From IMG/VR virus record IMGVR_UViG_3300037225_000134, positions 1 to 61,939 of that record: a stretch of 61,939 bases of DNA; one strand, 5' to 3'. The notes under the pieces were generated by a model, which ran no database searches, had not been told where the DNA came from, and was given only the letters and a program-made list of their open reading frames with translations. Made by a program: the position numbers and the translations under genes. Each line of letters starts with the position of its first letter. Positions within the stretch are counted from its first letter, which is position 1. Source of the DNA: a virus (taxonomy: Duplodnaviria > Caudoviricetes). Positions 4,455 through 57,413 of the stretch are shown one piece after another.

Positions 4455-4671
4455 AATAAATGTCATTGAATAATGTTCTGGTAGTTGCAGAACTAATAAA
4501 AGATGAGATATTTGGGATCTATGATCTATGTGCGGATTGTGAGTATGATGACAGCTACTTTAACTATGGTAACGCTGCATTCCTAGCTACCTCCCTTAAA
4601 GCCGCAATCATTATCGCTATGGATATTGAACATGAATATGGGCCAACCTTCATATTTAAAGGCGATAAAAA

Positions 4672-6242: not shown

Positions 6243-6617
6243 ATGATATATTTGCCACATAAAAAGTATACTCTGAAAAGTGATACCAAACGATATAAGA
6301 AGTACAGAAAACAAGTACTATCTGATAGACAGCAGTGGCATGATAATCATAGAGAAGATTTTAAAAAATACGAAGTATTTAGGAATGGCGAATTAAGGGA
6401 TATGGTGTTTGATCTATTAGGTGATCAATGTGCAAGATGTGGAATCGCAGATTATAGGGTTCTGCAAATTGACCATATAAATGGAGGTGGAAGTATAGAA
6501 AGACGAAAAATAGGTAGCCGAGGAATCTATATCAAGATCCTAGAAGATGGAGGCGCTGGATATCAAATCTTATGCGCAAATTGCAATACTTTAAAGAGAG
6601 CTATAAATAAGGAGTGA
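6243..6617 (+). CDS. HNH endonuclease (homing-type), paralog of 54052-54453
   Basis: CARC...DHINGGGS...YQILCANCN; basic Tyr-rich N-terminus. Confidence 0.85.
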   Translation: MIYLPHKKYTLKSDTKRYKKYRKQVLSDRQQWHDNHREDFKKYEVFRNGELRDMVFDLLGDQCARCGIADYRVLQIDHINGGGSIERRKIGSRGIYIKILEDGGAGYQILCANCNTLKRAINKE

Positions 6618-15624: not shown

Positions 15625-15753
15625 TTGAGGAATAAGTATCCCAATCTGAAAAGAATGCCTTCAATGTGGACAAAGACGTACTATGTTGGAACTGCTGGTA
15701 ATGTCTCCGCAGAGGTAATCAAGCGATATATCGAGGAATGTCAAGGAACATGA
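15625..15753 (+). pseudogene. tnpA: C-terminal fragment of TnpA
   Basis: LRNKYPNLKRMPSMWTKTYYVGTAGNVSAEVIKRYIEECQGT*; HUH half absent; stop codon just upstream. Confidence 0.85.
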
Positions 15754-16862
15754 AGACCGCCTACAAGTTCAGGATGTACCCTAATAAGCAGCAAGAAGCC
15801 ATGTTAGATGTAACTCTTGAAACTTGCAGGCACCTCTACAACACTGCTCTGGCGGATCGTAAGAATTGCTATGAACTTGAAGGTATCAGCAGGTCCTATG
15901 AAGATCAGGCAGCTACTTTGACCCTTGAAAAGAAGGAAGGGAAATGGCAAATCTTCTCTCAGGTTTCTCAGGATGTTTTGAAGAGGGTAGACAAAGCCTT
16001 CAAGGCATTCTTCAGGAGAGTCAATGCAGGAGAGAAACCTGGATATCCTCGATTCAAGGGAGACGGCTGGTATAAGTCTTTTACATACCCACAAGTAGGA
16101 TTCAAGGTTGAAGGATCTAAGTTGGTTCTGTCCAAGATCGGCTCCATCAGGATCTTCAAGCATCGAGAAGTCGAAGGCAAAATCAAGACATGCACTATCA
16201 AGAAGGATCTCTTGGGGCACTGGTATGCGATATTAGTATCTGAGATGGAAGATGTTTTTCAGGTCGAACCTAAGGTTGCTATTGGCGTAGATGTTGGCTT
16301 GAAGAATATGGTTGCACTCTCTGACGGCACTGCTATTCAGTATCCCAGGTACTACGTCCAAGCCGAAAAGAAACTTGCAGTAGCCCAAAGAGAGCTTTCC
16401 CGAAAGAAGAAGGGATCAATTAACCGTCAAGTAGCCAAAACCAGAGTCGCTAAGCTCCATCAAAAGATCCAGAACCATCGAGATGAGTTCCTACATCAAG
16501 TATCCAGAAAGCTCGTAGATTCAGCCGATCTAATTGTATTTGAGAACTTGAATATTTCGGGTATGCTCAAGAATCATCACCTCGCAAAGCATATTCAAGA
16601 TCATGCATGGGGCAAACTAATCCAGTTCACTCAAAGCAAAGCTGCAAAGGCTGGCAAAGTGGTAGAACTGGTAGATGCAAGGTACACTTCTCAGAAGTGC
16701 TCCACATGTGGTATAATAGTTCCTAAGACCCTGGCAGATAGAGTTCATTCATGCCCCAACTGTGGGCTGGAGATGGACCGGGATATCAATGCCAGCTTGA
16801 ACATACTCACCCTCGGACTGAGGGGAAGAGCCTATCGAGATACTGCAAAAGCAGGTCAGTGA
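15750..16862 (+). CDS. tnpB: RNA-guided nuclease TnpB (start at the ATGA overlap with the tnpA remnant; ORF track start 15738)
   Basis: MKTAYKFRMYP, GYPRFK, RuvC IGVDVG / VFENL / DRDINA intact, Zn ribbon. Confidence 0.95.
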   Translation: MKTAYKFRMYPNKQQEAMLDVTLETCRHLYNTALADRKNCYELEGISRSYEDQAATLTLEKKEGKWQIFSQVSQDVLKRVDKAFKAFFRRVNAGEKPGYPRFKGDGWYKSFTYPQVGFKVEGSKLVLSKIGSIRIFKHREVEGKIKTCTIKKDLLGHWYAILVSEMEDVFQVEPKVAIGVDVGLKNMVALSDGTAIQYPRYYVQAEKKLAVAQRELSRKKKGSINRQVAKTRVAKLHQKIQNHRDEFLHQVSRKLVDSADLIVFENLNISGMLKNHHLAKHIQDHAWGKLIQFTQSKAAKAGKVVELVDARYTSQKCSTCGIIVPKTLADRVHSCPNCGLEMDRDINASLNILTLGLRGRAYRDTAKAGQ

Positions 16863-52032: not shown

Positions 52033-52698
52033 ATGGAGACTTTGCAAATGGCAATTTCACTTATTATTGATTCTAGAGAAAAACTAGATAAAGTACAACC
52101 TTTAATGGATAAAATCATGGCTGGAGGTAGATTTGATAACATTAAAATAGAGTATAAAGCATTAAAATATGGGGATTACCGTATTGACTCCAACGGCAAA
52201 AGCATGTTAATAGAAAGAAAGGCGGTAGCTGACTTTTGCTCGAACTATGGCAAAGGAGACCTGAAAGAAAAGCTTTGGCATATGAGGCAGGAAGCAGACA
52301 GAGCTATGCTTATGATCGAAGGCCGGTTTAAAACCTTCGAGGGAAAACCCGACTTATATCTATATCGTGGTAGTGATTTAACTCCAGAAATAAAAATTCA
52401 AACTTACGTTAGGTTCTTAACAAATGAAATGGAGCGTGAAACTTGGATTTACTTTACACATAGCCGATTCGAGAGCCTGCTAAGCATCATGTACTTGGCT
52501 GAAAACATGGAATTTATGCAAAATCCTAAACCAAGTATAAAATGTGGTAATCCCCGTGAACTATTGATACAAATACCAGGTGTTGGAGAAGATACGATAA
52601 AGAAGCTTCAAATGAAATACAAGACACCTATGGACGCCTTGATTGATTTGGATTCGTGGGCAAATAAGACTGTTAAAGAGGGTTTAAATTCATGGTAA
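52033..52698 (+). CDS. ERCC4/XPF-family structure-specific nuclease with HhH
   Basis: IDSRE, GDY, IERK...D, IEG; IPGVG HhH. Confidence 0.88.
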   Translation: METLQMAISLIIDSREKLDKVQPLMDKIMAGGRFDNIKIEYKALKYGDYRIDSNGKSMLIERKAVADFCSNYGKGDLKEKLWHMRQEADRAMLMIEGRFKTFEGKPDLYLYRGSDLTPEIKIQTYVRFLTNEMERETWIYFTHSRFESLLSIMYLAENMEFMQNPKPSIKCGNPRELLIQIPGVGEDTIKKLQMKYKTPMDALIDLDSWANKTVKEGLNSW

Positions 52699-53189
52699 AT
52701 AATATTTATGTCGATATTGATGGTGTCCTTAGGCTCTTAGATGTGAAATGCTTTGGGAAACCTGCGAAGTATTGGCACCAGAAAAACGATAAGATGCAAA
52801 GCCTAATAGAGATAGTTAATGAAAACCTTAATGTTCTGTTAGAAGCGGAACCAACGGAGTACCTGCCGTATTTCAATACATGGCCTAAGTTAACTCTGTT
52901 AACATCGCAGCTTGAGGCCTGGAAGCCTTATACTGAAGCATGGCTAAAAGCCCATCTTACAGTACCTTACACTATCACCTATACCCTAGATGCTAACGAT
53001 AAGTTAGACCACCTGGAGAAGGGAGATTATGTCATCGATGATAGCCCAATGTTCTCGAATTTTAAACAAGTTATATTAGTTCACAAGAAGTATAATAAGA
53101 AGGCGGAAGCACCCCTAAGGATACATAATTCATTTGAGTTATCAATATTATTAGGGATGTTAAAGAGGAAGAAAAAGGAGATACGATGA
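52692..53189 (+). CDS. HAD-family 5'(3')-nucleotidase-like protein
   Basis: YVDIDGVL, LLTS, K, IDDSP. Confidence 0.75.
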   Translation: MVNNIYVDIDGVLRLLDVKCFGKPAKYWHQKNDKMQSLIEIVNENLNVLLEAEPTEYLPYFNTWPKLTLLTSQLEAWKPYTEAWLKAHLTVPYTITYTLDANDKLDHLEKGDYVIDDSPMFSNFKQVILVHKKYNKKAEAPLRIHNSFELSILLGMLKRKKKEIR

Positions 53190-53221
53190 CAACAAAAATT
53201 AGATAAATTTGGTGATATAAA

Positions 53222-54049
53222 ATGAGAATTATAGATAACGACGCAATGGTAGGACTCTCTATTAGAGATCTACGAAACATAATGGCGGGAAGAGCTGCAA
53301 CAGAAAACGCAAATTTAGCCAATAACCCGGAAACCAAGCACAAGCAAATAGCGGACCTGGTATCTAAGGACTTCTATCTTAAGATGCTTCCTGAAGAGCT
53401 GGCACAGCTTCATATCGATGGTAGCCTACACATTCACGACCTGGAGTACTTCGGTACCCGGCCATTTTGCCGAAGCCTAGATATTAGGCCTACTCTGATG
53501 TATGGGTTTATGCCCGACGGAGGGCATGGAGCGATTGATGCAGGCCCGGCAATGCACCCTGACGTAGCAATACTTCAGGCGGCTAAAGCTCTTGCTATGA
53601 GCCAAACACAACACGCCGGAGGGCAAGGCCTACTGTATGGGCTTGTATTCCTGAGCCCCTTCATGGCAGAGCTGGATTATAAAGGAATTAAACAGATGAT
53701 GCAGCTTTTGATGTATGAATTGAATCAAATGTATATATCAAGAGGCGGGCAAACCATATTCAGCTCAATTAATATATCTCCTGGAGTACCTAAGATACTT
53801 GAGGATGTACCGGTAGTCTGGAAGGGGATTCTATGGGACGGTGAGACTCAACCCTATGGAAAGATGGATAAGGGGATCTACTCGGATTACATCAGGTATC
53901 CTAAGAAGACCTACGGCGACTTTGAAAAAGAAGTAAGGCTTATGTTTAAGGCCTTGATGGAAATATCACTACAGGGCGATATTCGAAACAAACCTTACCC
54001 CTTTCCCAAGTTGGAAGTAAGTATCGAGAAAAAGTTCTTGGAGGAATAA
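53222..54049 (+). CDS. nrdD: Anaerobic (class III) ribonucleotide reductase, N-terminal fragment
   Basis: HIHDLEY...RPFC, AGGQG, RGGQTIFSS, FPKLE; no ATP cone seen. Confidence 0.9.
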   Translation: MRIIDNDAMVGLSIRDLRNIMAGRAATENANLANNPETKHKQIADLVSKDFYLKMLPEELAQLHIDGSLHIHDLEYFGTRPFCRSLDIRPTLMYGFMPDGGHGAIDAGPAMHPDVAILQAAKALAMSQTQHAGGQGLLYGLVFLSPFMAELDYKGIKQMMQLLMYELNQMYISRGGQTIFSSINISPGVPKILEDVPVVWKGILWDGETQPYGKMDKGIYSDYIRYPKKTYGDFEKEVRLMFKALMEISLQGDIRNKPYPFPKLEVSIEKKFLEE

Positions 54050-54051
54050 TC

Positions 54052-54453
54052 ATGGATAAAACAGAATACAATAAGAAGTATAGATTAGATCATATAACTT
54101 ATTTTCATGAATACGATAAAGAACGATATCTTACAAACAAAGATGATATATTAGTTAATAAGAAAGAAGATAGAGAAAAATATCCAGATAAATATAAAAA
54201 ACGAGATAAACTAAATTATAGAAAACTTCGTATTCAAGTTATTATGGCATTAGGCGAAAAATGTGTAGATTGTAGAACTATGGATATTAGAGTATTAGAC
54301 GCACACCATATCAATGGCGGAGGAAGCCAACAATTCAAAACATTTGGAAATTATAAAAAGTATTACAAATATATTATAGATAACCCAACAGAATTTTTAT
54401 TATTATGTGCAAATTGTCATAGAATAAGGCATTATGGTGATTTAGATGGATGA
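54052..54453 (+). CDS. HNH homing endonuclease interrupting nrdD
   Basis: CVDC...HHINGGGS...LLCANCH; AT-rich; fills the gap between the nrdD halves exactly. Confidence 0.9.
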   Translation: MDKTEYNKKYRLDHITYFHEYDKERYLTNKDDILVNKKEDREKYPDKYKKRDKLNYRKLRIQVIMALGEKCVDCRTMDIRVLDAHHINGGGSQQFKTFGNYKKYYKYIIDNPTEFLLLCANCHRIRHYGDLDG

Positions 54454-55633
54454 AGACGTACCTACATATGAAGAATTATATAAAATGGCATTTGAAGTTG
54501 CTGCGAAATTTGGAACAATTTACTTCGATAATTTACTTATTGATGGTAAAAACAAAGAAAATTCTGTTTCGTGTACCCAATGCTGCGCATATAGCTTCAA
54601 ATCTGATGATAAAACAGATAACAAATTTAACAAAAAACTAAACTTTGTAGGTGGTGAGCATTTTAAGCTCGGAGGTATGCAGGTAGTAAGTATCAACCTT
54701 CCAAGGTGCGCATACCAGGCTAACGGCGATAAAAAGATACTCATAGCACGGATCTATGACATGATGGATAAGGCGGTGGAGATCTTTAAGATAAAGCAAA
54801 AATTGATCATGGATCAGGCGGCAAATGGAAGCTTATCTTACATCAATCAGATTACTCCAAAAGGGGTAAGATTCACAGATTTCAAGTCTCTAGTATTTGA
54901 AATGGGTATTGTAGGCCTAAATGAGATGGTGGAGCATTTCACTTGTGAGCAGCTACATGAAAGTGAAAACTCGCGAGACCTGGCAAAAAGCATCCTGGCA
55001 CAAATGAGTGAATATTGCAAAATGGCCTCGGATACCTATAATATGAAAATTGTATTGGCCCGGACTCCGGCAGAGACAACGGCTCAGAGGTTCGCAGTTT
55101 GTGACATGATGGATGATAGGTACAAAGGATTCGCGGAGCTTACGGTAAAGGGAGACAAGTACACGGCCAAGGGCCTAATAGCCAAGGGAAAAACAAGAGA
55201 CCTGCCGGTATTTTACAGTAATGGTATATCACCAAGCATAGACGCACCTATAAATCTATCCAAAAAAATAAAAATAGAAAGCGAGCTTTGGCCTTATTTA
55301 GATGGCGGATGCATCTCACATATTTGGCTTGGAGAGTCAAACCCTTCAGCCGAAAGTCTTATGAATTTCGCTCTAAGAATCGCACAGAAAACCAATATCG
55401 GGTACTTTGCTTTCAGTAAGAATTATTCACAATGTGAAATATGCCATCATATCACCGATGGAATAGCCAAAAAATGCGAAAAATGCGGAGGCGAAAAGCT
55501 TATCATCTTTGCACGTATAACAGGATACTTGAGTGCAGCGGGCATGATGGAGCACGGAATATTTAAACCACGATGGAACGCTGCAAAAGCTACAGAACTG
55601 TTTATGAGGCACGATGATGGAAAAGATATGTAA
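54446..55633 (+). CDS. nrdD: Anaerobic (class III) ribonucleotide reductase, C-terminal fragment
   Basis: QCCAY finger loop, SINLPR, GLNE, TPAET, CxxC-CxxC, glycyl-radical motif RITGYL. Confidence 0.92.
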   Translation: MDEDVPTYEELYKMAFEVAAKFGTIYFDNLLIDGKNKENSVSCTQCCAYSFKSDDKTDNKFNKKLNFVGGEHFKLGGMQVVSINLPRCAYQANGDKKILIARIYDMMDKAVEIFKIKQKLIMDQAANGSLSYINQITPKGVRFTDFKSLVFEMGIVGLNEMVEHFTCEQLHESENSRDLAKSILAQMSEYCKMASDTYNMKIVLARTPAETTAQRFAVCDMMDDRYKGFAELTVKGDKYTAKGLIAKGKTRDLPVFYSNGISPSIDAPINLSKKIKIESELWPYLDGGCISHIWLGESNPSAESLMNFALRIAQKTNIGYFAFSKNYSQCEICHHITDGIAKKCEKCGGEKLIIFARITGYLSAAGMMEHGIFKPRWNAAKATELFMRHDDGKDM

Positions 55634-55705
55634 GAAATGTAAGAAGAGTAAGGATGTTAAATTTTTTACTAAGAATAACGACAACAAAGACCACCTTGAT
55701 GACTT

Positions 55706-56428
55706 ATGCGATATTTGTATAGGAGAACTAAAATGAAAATGTACTATGGAGGCATGGAGAACGTATCTTTAACTGATTGGCCGGGGGAAGTGGCAACCGT
55801 TATCTTTTTCCAAGGTTGTCCTATGAAGTGCCCGCACTGTTTCAATGAGGCTATGCTACAACCCCTTGGAGCCAATTTGAGGGACCTAAAGGTAATAAAG
55901 GATGACCTGGTATCAAACCCTCTTATATCGGCTCTAGTACTATCTGGAGGGGAACCCCTTATGCAACCCGACGCGGCGAGGGAGTTATTGGTATATGCTA
56001 AATCGATAGGCTTGAAAACCGCTATAGAGACCTGCGGCTATTACCCAAACGAATTAGTCAAATTACTAATTAATGATTTACTTGATATGGTTTTCATTGA
56101 TGTAAAGTCGGAGCTAACTGATGGTTCGCAGAGTATCGCGACGGGGATAAACGACGCTACAAACAAGGTGATAGACAGCTTAAACATATGCTTCACGACG
56201 ACGATACCATTTGAGATTAGAACCACGGTATTTCCAAACTTTCCAAATACAATAGAGCTGGCGAATCTCGCGATGGATATTAAGAAACTGAAAAAGGAGT
56301 ACCCAAATAACGAGCTACAGGGCCACGTTCTGCAACAGGGCATAGCAAAAGAGAGCGAGACGTACTTTGAGCCAGTACTTAAGGCAACCTTAGCAAATAT
56401 GCAGAAAGTATTAGATGAGTTTATTTAA
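55706..56428 (+). CDS. nrdG: Anaerobic RNR activating radical SAM enzyme
   Basis: DWPG...GCPMKCPHCFN, SGGEP, EIRTT; follows nrdD. Confidence 0.92.
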   Translation: MRYLYRRTKMKMYYGGMENVSLTDWPGEVATVIFFQGCPMKCPHCFNEAMLQPLGANLRDLKVIKDDLVSNPLISALVLSGGEPLMQPDAARELLVYAKSIGLKTAIETCGYYPNELVKLLINDLLDMVFIDVKSELTDGSQSIATGINDATNKVIDSLNICFTTTIPFEIRTTVFPNFPNTIELANLAMDIKKLKKEYPNNELQGHVLQQGIAKESETYFEPVLKATLANMQKVLDEFI

Positions 56429-56942
56429 AATGAAAACAAATTATCAATTCATCGGGCCTATTAGGGATATTCGCGAGTTTGCGTGTGATAATTTATACTT
56501 TACTTATCATATTAAAACGGGCGAAGGTGGATACGATTGTCAGAGGCTATCGGGTCACTATTGTTATGGTACCGGGTGGTGTCCACTACGTTATACCTCG
56601 GGGGAATTTACCCCTAAAGTAGGGTCAAGTGGATCATGGCGATTCTATTGACCAAAACCTTTTTATTCTAATCTTGTCTTTATGGTATCTGGAGATAACT
56701 ACTCCGACTAACAACCGGAGCAAGTGACCAATATCAAAGCCAACGGAAACCACCGCAAAGAAAGCCGGGTATCCGCCGCCAGCACCTTCTATAATAATCC
56801 TGACATTATTAGTATTAGAGATAGTCCTAGCAGTCTCAGGATAAGGAGGCGGCTAATATTGCAAAACTGTTTAATGAACCAAAGACATCAAACCATTTTT
56901 TGATGGTGTATAATAGGCTTAACTTATAAGAGGTAGGCGGAA

Positions 56943-57413
56943 ATGAAAATACTGCTTGGGATACTGGTTCTACTGCTAACCGTACCAACGGCTCAGGCAG
57001 TAGGAATAAATGGACTGCTAACCTTTGAGAATTTTCTCAGGGTAGACAACACAAGCCACGGGAAATACATACCAGGCGTGTATGAATGCATACAATTTAG
57101 TGAGGACCTGGTAAAAGAAGCAAAACTACACGGCTATGATTTGATATTAGTGCTCGCGGGAAAGTGCAAAACCTTTCCTAAAGGTCACTGCATGGTAGCT
57201 ATACATTTAGATACCGGAGTAGACACTAAACAATATTGTATATTTGATTCCCAAACTGGCGTATACATGAACACGGTACTACTAAAATGCAGCCAAACCG
57301 AGAACATGAGTCTAATATTCTTACCATTACAGGCAGTAAAAGCACAATCAGTAGAATCAGTATTTTATGATACCGATATGGTAATATCTGTAAAAATCTT
57401 TAAGGGTGAATAA
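56943..57413 (+). CDS. Secreted papain/transglutaminase-like cysteine peptidase
   Basis: Signal peptide; YECIQFS (Cys), GHCMV (His), IFDSQ (Asp). Confidence 0.6.
   Translation: MKILLGILVLLLTVPTAQAVGINGLLTFENFLRVDNTSHGKYIPGVYECIQFSEDLVKEAKLHGYDLILVLAGKCKTFPKGHCMVAIHLDTGVDTKQYCIFDSQTGVYMNTVLLKCSQTENMSLIFLPLQAVKAQSVESVFYDTDMVISVKIFKGE

Follow-up and report, generated by a model that had tools for sequence, protein, structure and literature searches.

The question raised by this locus is whether a class III (glycyl-radical) ribonucleotide reductase (RNR) can still be made as a working enzyme after its catalytic gene, nrdD, has been cut in two by a nuclease gene. The locus lies in a linear virus record from peat, IMG/VR record IMGVR_UViG_3300037225_000134, which was analysed over its whole length of 61,939 bp (hereafter the window) and for which completeness was estimated at 73%. 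In the window, nrdD is present as two open reading frames (ORFs) with an HNH endonuclease gene between them, within a group of five closely packed plus-strand ORFs (53222-56428). It is likely that a homing-type nuclease cassette cut nrdD and that the two parts now yield two unspliced chains, which assemble into one NrdD; this was considered the best reading, in analogy to NrdA and mobE of phage Aeh1. A two-chain active enzyme had already been proposed in a sequence-only reading of the same DNA, and this proposal gains support from a second allele that is also split, a ratio of nonsynonymous to synonymous substitution rates (dN/dS) of 0.13, intact variants, RNA-library contigs and a structural model. 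If the proposal is true, a glycyl-radical enzyme works as two polypeptides, and its barrel is assembled after translation. The features of the locus are as follows.

53222-54049, plus strand: first half of nrdD, 275 amino acids (aa); matches Pfam NRDD and TIGR02487; colinear with uninterrupted relatives; no ATP-cone; contains Cys83 in RPFC
54040-54044, plus strand: GGAGG, a Shine-Dalgarno-like motif of presumed function, 7 nucleotides (nt) 5' of the HNH start and within the end of the first half
54052-54453, plus strand: free-standing HNH endonuclease gene, 133 aa; matches phrog_2255 and phrog_3106
54436-54440, plus strand: GGTGA, a Shine-Dalgarno-like motif of presumed function, 5 nt 5' of the second-half start and within the HNH gene
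54446-55633, plus strand: second half of nrdD, 395 aa; matches Pfam NRDD and TIGR02487; contains QCCAY, a zinc ribbon and RITGY
53746-54739, no strand: mosaic tract around the nuclease gene, drawn from identities to the second allele (locus L003) in 60-nt windows
55614-55736, plus strand: cysteine-rich ORF of 40 aa with CxxC...CxxC, overlapping the nrdD end and the nrdG start; weak PHROG matches
55706-56428, plus strand: nrdG, encoding the radical-SAM activase of NrdD, 240 aa; matches TIGR02495 (NrdG2) and Pfam Radical_SAM and Fer4_12; CxxxCxxC in the sequence

The first half ends in ...KKFLEE-TAA and is followed, after 2 nt (TC), by the ATG of the HNH gene. On the other side, the HNH stop codon TGA (54451-54453) overlaps the start of the second half by 8 nt (ATGGATGA), and the ATG at 54446 opens the second half with MDEDVPTYEEL. 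The junction sequences and the order of the ORFs had been given in the same way in the sequence-only reading, and all of its sequence statements held on re-reading, including the presence of GGAGG before the HNH gene and of GGTGA before the second half. Its remark that the HNH gene fills the gap to within 2 nt was correct for the upstream side and omitted the 8-nt overlap downstream. The two halves are in one common frame and are separated by 399 nt, which contain 11 stops in that frame. The activase gene nrdG begins 72 nt downstream of nrdD. A scan of 52900-56800 revealed no plus-strand terminator-like site, and a promoter scan, the scope of which was limited to bacterial-type promoters and did not include archaeal ones, returned 12 matches versus a mean of 11.5 in shuffled sequence.

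Together, the two halves cover NrdD. On Pfam NRDD (562 positions), the first half matched positions 1-213 (E 1.5e-51), and the second half matched positions 220-560 (E 9.3e-72). On TIGR02487 (581 positions), the matches were 2-227 (145.7 bits) and 229-578 (235.9 bits). The halves therefore abut on both profiles (213|220 on Pfam and 227|229 on TIGR02487), with 1-6 positions between them. The residues of the active site are divided between the halves: Cys83 (RPFC) is in the first, and Cys46/Cys47 (QCCAY), the four zinc cysteines and Gly360 (RITGY) are in the second, which bears out the composite active site proposed earlier. In a 13-row alignment, R357, T359, G360 and Y361 as well as C46 and C47 of the second half were invariant; at the zinc site, C330, C344 and C347 were invariant, and C333 was nearly so. 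The QCCA finger loop is a motif assigned to the NrdD3 subclade (PMC9669993). Alignment with the uninterrupted relatives P0002 (643 aa), P0003 (638 aa) and P0017 (652 aa) was colinear, and no conserved part was absent from the halves. The break falls in a variable loop of 11-46 residues in uninterrupted relatives, between an FPK(L/P)E strand and an (S/T)Y(K/E)EL helix, which is a variable surface loop one strand-helix unit ahead of the finger loop. The first half stops 6 residues past the conserved strand, the second begins 6 residues before the conserved helix, and approximately 2-6 residues on each side of the break lack an equivalent in P0002 or P0003. Solved NrdD structures were matched too distantly at the sequence level for the junction to be placed in them. 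The activase was found to be intact, as stated earlier: its TIGR02495 NrdG2 score of 140.8 bits exceeds the equivalog cut-off of 131.15, and Radical_SAM and Fer4_12 were also matched in Pfam.

The way in which the halves abut bears on whether they could be rejoined at the protein level, for which a split intein (a "fractured gene") and translational bypassing are the candidate routes. RNR fractured genes, in which split inteins surround a free-standing endonuclease gene, have been described in metagenomes (PMC2677866), and NrdD proteins related to those of the window carry intein-like in-frame insertions, at other sites. However, no intein blocks were found at the broken ends, and the abutment leaves no additional domains of the kind expected of a split intein; neither 100-aa nor 35-aa intein pieces are present, and the half ends lie only 6 residues from the conserved strand and helix. 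The earlier claim that intein termini are lacking thus stood, since there is no room for intein parts. Bypassing would have to cross 399 nt with 11 in-frame stops, far above known gaps (50 nt in T4 gene 60; bioRxiv 10.1101/2022.08.31.505936). Rejoining of the chains by either route is refuted by the anatomy of the locus and was given almost no weight.

Removal of the insert from the RNA would also yield one 670-aa NrdD, by means of an unrecognised self-splicing intron or otherwise. The common frame of the halves and the insert length of exactly 399 nt are in accordance with this possibility, as is the literature: T4 and other phages have nrdD genes with endonuclease-bearing group I introns (PMC2988022, PMC3653736), and many nrdD interruptions of Jug phages are spliced introns (PMC12880540). 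However, the nuclease ORF fills the insert and leaves no non-coding core; the non-coding sequence amounts to 2 nt upstream, and downstream the ORF overlaps the second half by 8 nt, unlike in a group I intron. Rfam was searched with the window (52500-57000) and with L003 (1200-4100), and even at E values as high as 10 no intron was matched, in agreement with the earlier statement that group I intron flanks are absent. The second half has its own ATG and an upstream purine-rich motif in both alleles, and the same site in L003 holds a 633-nt insert with a different ORF. Contigs from RNA libraries of two studies, namely record 18 of run X17 (53922-54267) and record 11 of run X16 (54246-54649), cross the two junctions unspliced. 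No contig joining the sequence across the insert was found in the 4 runs examined, in line with the earlier expectation of an unspliced message; these records are contigs, which may include DNA and drop rare forms, so that the support they give is weak, and stretches of the window not covered by an RNA run carry no evidential weight. The flanks recovered from RNA run X18 were of the L003 type. Splicing of the insert was therefore considered very improbable, and expression of nrdD as two separate chains remains the preferred interpretation.

The second allele was found in a metagenome scan with the first half as the query, which returned nine loci. One of them, L006, repeats the arrangement of the window, with the same HNH protein changed at one residue. 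L003 is split at the same codon as the window, and its junctions, GAGGAATAA-ATC-ATG and ATGATTGA, are near-identical to those of the window. Its insert contains a 210-aa ORF with a G+C content of 0.272 and no significant similarity to the HNH protein (BLASTP E 0.98). An AlphaFold2 model of this protein (mean predicted local distance difference test score (pLDDT) of 88.6) was compared with the PDB by Foldseek, and 9 matches with E <=0.001 were obtained, including NhoI (E 6.6e-5) and I-Ssp6803I (E 2.8e-4), and also Eco15I, PvuII and Hjc. The protein belongs to a family of 19 proteins without a Pfam domain, and E88, D109, D119 and K121 are invariant in 18 sequences of this family. On the basis of the predicted fold and this motif, the L003 insert encodes a predicted PD-(D/E)XK nuclease. 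I-Ssp6803I is an intron-encoded enzyme. The L003 protein resembles it (PDB 2ost) in the predicted fold (template modelling score 0.40-0.59) and in the invariant E, D and D-x-K residues, and differs from it in being free-standing, having an N-terminal zinc ribbon and belonging to no Pfam family. Thus, one slot is held by an HNH gene (window and L006) or by a PD-(D/E)XK gene (L003), and the empty site was found only in more distant relatives.

Zinc-ribbon PD-(D/E)XK proteins of the L003 type were observed at 49 viral-contig loci, with two copies in at least 3 viruses (L014/L016, L023/L042 and L051/L053). Coordinates were obtained for 47 of the 49 (L060, which is partial, and L062, with 27% identity, were left out), and no ORF was found for 2 of these 47. 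A tblastn search with the NrdD halves showed none of the 49 loci to adjoin nrdD. A Pfam scan of the flanks of 5 loci found PolB and dCTP deaminase among the neighbours and showed no split gene. These proteins are a candidate new family of free-standing homing endonucleases.

Comparison of the DNA of the window with that of L003 revealed a mosaic. Identity was 1.00 in 30 consecutive 60-nt windows downstream (54860-56659, 1.8 kb), 0.97 in 54740-54859 and 0.88 in 54680-54739, and it fell to 0.63-0.70 in 54446-54679, within approximately 250 nt of the insert. On the upstream side, identity was 0.63-0.88 in 53746-54042 and mostly 0.98-1.00 farther away. The nrdG genes of the two alleles are 100% identical. 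For the last 100 codons of the first half and the first 100 codons of the second, dS was 1.23 and dN was 0.164, giving the dN/dS of 0.13; these junction flanks are under purifying selection. The low identity of the tract together with this ratio points to imported flanks whose source was a diverged nrdD, itself subject to purifying selection and interrupted at the identical codon. What separates the alleles is a mosaic tract with the nuclease gene at its centre, and its pattern looks like co-conversion. In the T4 literature, co-conversion of flanks accompanies endonuclease-mediated mobility, which matches the pattern observed here (PMC2988022). The same source describes RNR genes as shared targets of different endonucleases and the free-standing endonucleases as promoter-less cassettes. 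Two alleles from the same peat samples, 100% identical outside a mosaic tract of approximately 1 kb, provide a natural setting in which the competition of homing endonucleases can be studied. DNA run X11 contained HNH-allele contigs and a loose end identical to L003 2984-3004; because both types were found in this run, both alleles were present in one sample.

All 8 full-length first-half variants (that of the window and seven from cluster 2, to one of which the L003 variant is equal) were intact and ended at the same site. Three of them are 275 aa long (...KFLEE), five, including that of L003, are 276 aa long (...KFLIEE), and distal variants are shuffled between the two classes. Locus L008, of the L003 type, lies on a hairpin-like contig rich in errors, and most of its nuclease ORF is deleted between two in-frame TATGAAAAA repeats. 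Both junctions are retained in this single molecule despite the deletion, which suggests that the split may outlive the nuclease.

The HNH gene of the window was studied in the same way. Its product matched the PHROG HNH families phrog_2255 (E 1.8e-13) and phrog_3106 (E 5e-11), and an NCBIfam profile search of this ORF returned no match. Residues C71, C74, H85, H86, C119, N121, C122 and H127 were taken to form the CxxC...CxxC and HH-N-H motif. Its distant viral relatives number 54, with a core identity of 26-39% and one short match of 17 residues at 65%. The G+C content of the gene is 0.264, the lowest among 61 plus-strand ORFs of at least 100 aa, versus 0.417 for the window. A paralogue is encoded at 6243-6617 (124 aa, 31% identity, E 7e-16); it lies among small ORFs, has the second-lowest G+C content of the ORFs (0.347), and no split gene is evident near it. 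The HNH gene lies outside any intron or intein (no intron was matched, and the nrdD halves abut on the profiles), as the sequence-only reading had maintained, and its foreign composition and the second copy in the genome are those of a free-standing homing endonuclease. It is presumably a selfish element of the homing type, in which case its product would be an active nuclease with a target in nrdD.

The distribution of the split was determined among relatives. None of 30 viral-contig relatives and none of 79 cellular relatives is split at this junction (a 31st viral locus with a short C-terminal match only and an 80th cellular locus without the N-terminal part were left out of these counts). 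A tree was built from 31 rows chosen by hand, namely 11 of the 31 viral loci, 9 of the 80 cellular ones, 8 proteins, the loci L003 and L007, and the window. In it, the window and L003 were sisters (support 100/100) and adjoined the uninterrupted P0002 and P0003 (99/97). A probable third split lineage is represented by P0042, a 415-aa protein (41% identity) whose sequence opens with MTEEHIPTNEEQYRLAF at this same junction. P0141 is homologous to the L003 nuclease (59%), and both P0042 and P0141 list a longest contig of 3736 bp. P0042 fell elsewhere in the tree, in a supported clade together with P0045 and L080, both uninterrupted. Among viral contigs, no close relatives were found for the second half or for P0042. 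Two other proteins were considered as split cases and were not counted: P0109 (337 aa) ends in ...KFINW near the junction, maybe through a cut at a contig end, and its 66% relative L012 is uninterrupted; P0049 resembled a second-half ORF, and its cluster contains a 758-aa member.

The best 80 cellular matches all had archaeal titles, nearly all of methanogens or methanotrophs, at 40-46% identity, while the best identity of the second half to 50,697 deposited phage records was 27%. Because of the NrdD subtype and these nearest cellular relatives, the virus is likely to be archaeal, with methane-cycling archaea as its probable host. Few descriptions exist of such selfish elements in viruses of archaea.

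Several observations weigh against a functional two-chain enzyme split by a homing element. Each half taken singly scores below the TIGR02487 cut-off of 326.35 bits, and only their rough sum, 381.6, passes it. The sole Pfam match of the HNH ORF, HNH_2 (E 0.025, 14.9 bits), is below the cut-off of 21. A minor spliced form would be compatible with the RNA-library contigs, and ordinary recombination with breakpoints near the insert could also yield the mosaic tract. Since the split was seen in none of the viral and cellular relatives counted, it would be young or narrow, which weakens the argument from long-term retention. Nine conserved residues, GGCISHIWL, are missing from P0001 (386 aa), which is one of 13 proteins in the second-half cluster, and completeness is not judgeable for 6 of the 13 (90-274 aa). 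Finally, the first half of L008 contains frameshifts.

Three of these observations (the possibly recent origin of the split, the residues missing from P0001 and the frameshifts of L008) are those expected if the split inactivated nrdD, so that the halves are a recent pseudogene and ribonucleotide reduction by the host is used. However, two alleles, each of them split, give a dN/dS of 0.13 at a dS of 1.23 for their flanks, the catalytic and zinc residues are all retained, and so are the translation signals at both junctions of both alleles. The complete identity of an intact nrdG between the alleles and the open frames of all eight full-length first-half variants are also contrary to decay. The indels of L008 (17-55 gap openings per arm) are patterned like sequencing errors, and its frameshifts were attributed to such errors. 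A pseudogene was therefore considered unlikely, and retention of nrdD as a gene for two chains was preferred.

Assembly of the two chains was studied by structure prediction. The interaction prediction score from aligned errors (ipSAE) was 0.91 in each of three runs, whereas the best of 3 controls gave 0.47; 58 of 80 solved complexes attained the mark applied to this score, as did 2 of 110 mismatched pairs. The contacts agreed between runs by at least 92%, and the pLDDT of the partner was at least 87. Residues 77-85 of chain 1 contacted residues 43-46 and 360-363 of chain 2. NrdD structures have been solved as a single chain. Therefore, the pass of the two-chain model may reflect memory of those structures, and it speaks for likeness to NrdD, not for binding of these particular chains.

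The following course of events would account for the locus. A promoter-less cassette, in which a nuclease gene is preceded by a stop codon and followed by a new start codon, would have cut nrdD in the variable surface loop. The operon, comprising the first half of nrdD, the HNH gene, the second half, the small ORF and nrdG, would be transcribed as one message. Its three large ORFs would then be translated in succession, the nuclease by means of the GGAGG within the first half and the second half by means of the GGTGA within the nuclease gene, with the second-half start overlapping the nuclease stop and with neither RNA nor protein splicing. The chains of 275 aa and 395 aa may associate after translation and rebuild the NrdD barrel, so that Cys83 of chain 1 would face two loops of chain 2, the QCC finger loop and that of Gly360. 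The glycyl radical would then be installed on the assembled NrdD by NrdG. In the virus population, the slot would be held by either the HNH gene or the unrelated PD-(D/E)XK gene, and exchange of the cassette would carry along approximately 250-300 nt of flanking nrdD by co-conversion. If the halves are active, they give a measure of how much fragmentation a radical-bearing barrel tolerates, and the break offers a natural site for the engineering of split glycyl-radical enzymes.

The closest known system is NrdA-a/mobE/NrdA-b of phage Aeh1, in which an RNR catalytic gene is also split by a free-standing HNH gene without an intron or intein, the active-site residues are shared out over two chains, and post-translational assembly was proposed as the rescue (PMC3045599). 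There are several differences. The Aeh1 enzyme is of class Ia, whereas the present one is a class III glycyl-radical enzyme of a probably archaeal virus. The activity of the Aeh1 enzyme was determined experimentally, and tails derived from the insertion are essential for it (PMC3045599); the present enzyme is a predicted one, the new ends comprise only a few residues (...EE and MDED...), and no added interaction domain is visible at them. In addition, a second, unrelated nuclease family occupies the same slot of a near-identical genome here.

Interrupted nrdD genes have been reported in bacteriophages, with introns, inteins or unexplained fragmentations as the causes (PMC4837284, PMC12880540, PMC3653736), and six cases of split nrdD were counted among 128 phage genomes (PMC3653736). 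In FelixO1-like phages (UAB_Phi87, HB-2014 and JH2), nrdD is likewise annotated as two ORFs around a homing endonuclease ORF. However, the pieces are of 399 and 284 aa, and hence the site is another one; by the coordinates of the gene table, 112 and 255 nt of non-coding sequence flank the endonuclease ORF, which would give space to an intron core (PMC4837284), and the sequences are unrelated (27% is the best phage identity of the second half). The T4 nrdD gene (sunY) contains a group I intron with I-TevII (PMC2988022), and fragmentation of nrdD was counted in 95 of 104 Jug phage genomes, one junction being described as lacking evidence of splicing (PMC12880540). These phages are similar to the present virus in having nrdD as a hot spot of mobile elements that bear endonucleases (PMC2988022, PMC12880540). 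In them, the elements are mainly introns and inteins that restore one chain, whereas here neither kind can be detected and the halves are each provided with translation signals of their own. In class II, too, an RNR catalytic subunit occurs naturally as two chains (NrdJa/NrdJb); there, the split lies past the barrel and involves no mobile element (PMC9669993); here, the barrel itself is divided, with a nuclease gene in the gap.

The sequence-only reading knew of no equivalent for NrdD in an archaeal virus. Two points need correcting here: endonuclease-interrupted nrdD had already been published for bacteriophages, and the archaeal label is itself indirect. In a literature search that did not extend to most subscription journals and supplementary tables (e.g., that of Jug phage nrdD), neither an intron-less two-chain NrdD nor a case from an archaeal virus was found. 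The present locus would thus be the first case found of a class III RNR barrel delivered as two chains through an intron-less nuclease insertion. What is added to the already known splitting of nrdD by endonucleases is a pair of alleles with unrelated nucleases and a tract resembling co-conversion.

A more extended scheme can be put forward tentatively. The split may have become a stable state of the gene, with the gap serving as a permanent landing pad in which HNH and PD-(D/E)XK genes displace each other by cutting the rival allele and co-converting approximately 250-300 nt. The split would persist after decay of the nuclease, as in L008, and the PD-(D/E)XK family may have independently split a distant NrdD at the same loop (P0042 with P0141). 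This scheme is possible rather than probable.

Other changes of nrdD were observed among the relatives. In 5 of the 30 viral relatives (L073, L079, L082, L083 and L086), the nrdD ORF ends short of the zinc-ribbon/glycyl-radical domain (at approximately 4502-4526), and a separate ORF of approximately 70 aa with CxxC...CxxC and R(I/V)TGY is located upstream of nrdD (motif at approximately 2092-2189). Judged by its motifs, this ORF is a stand-alone glycyl-radical domain and thus another natural route to a two-chain NrdD. An equally truncated tail was seen in the host-like proteins P0022, P0026 and P0029, one of which is labelled Methanoculleaceae. In-frame insertions of approximately 0.4-1.6 kb in nrdD were found in viral (L069, L070, L077, L078 and L084) and cellular (L099, L123, L140, L153, L157, L162 and L168) loci; the recurring sites include the position that follows residue ~178 of the first half and the QCC finger loop (residue ~46 of the second half). 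These large insertions are probably inteins, and from such sequences nrdD of this group is seen as a hot spot for several kinds of mobile elements.

The window also encodes a terminase large subunit, a family B DNA polymerase, a DNA methylase and a TnpB, and it contains a single tRNA-Leu. Its own TnpB is encoded at 15738-16862. In L003 (107-1267), L009 and L011, a TnpB element of approximately 1.7 kb (OrfB_IS605 and Cas12f1-like TNB) is located 24 nt upstream of nrdD. This element is absent upstream of the window nrdD (site 53197|53198), and loose ends in RNA run X17 fall exactly at 53197/53198.

The 40-aa cysteine-rich ORF at 55614-55736 is 100% conserved in L003. It matched, weakly, the N-terminal regions of endonuclease VII/HNH families in PHROG (E 1.6e-5 to 1e-3) and the start of the L003 nuclease (E 0.011). 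It is possibly the remnant zinc ribbon of an older nuclease insertion between nrdD and nrdG.

Finally, a set of database proteins (P0115, P0117, P0118, P0120 and P0135, and P0047, P0050, P0052 and P0053), some of them encoded on contigs of 100-600 kb, includes several methanogen-like NrdD gene calls that leave the frame exactly at the CYQCCAY finger loop; P0135 is back in frame approximately 25 residues on. Matching C-terminal pieces begin just past this point. The loss of frame could be due to assembly error, pseudogenes or recoding at the catalytic loop.

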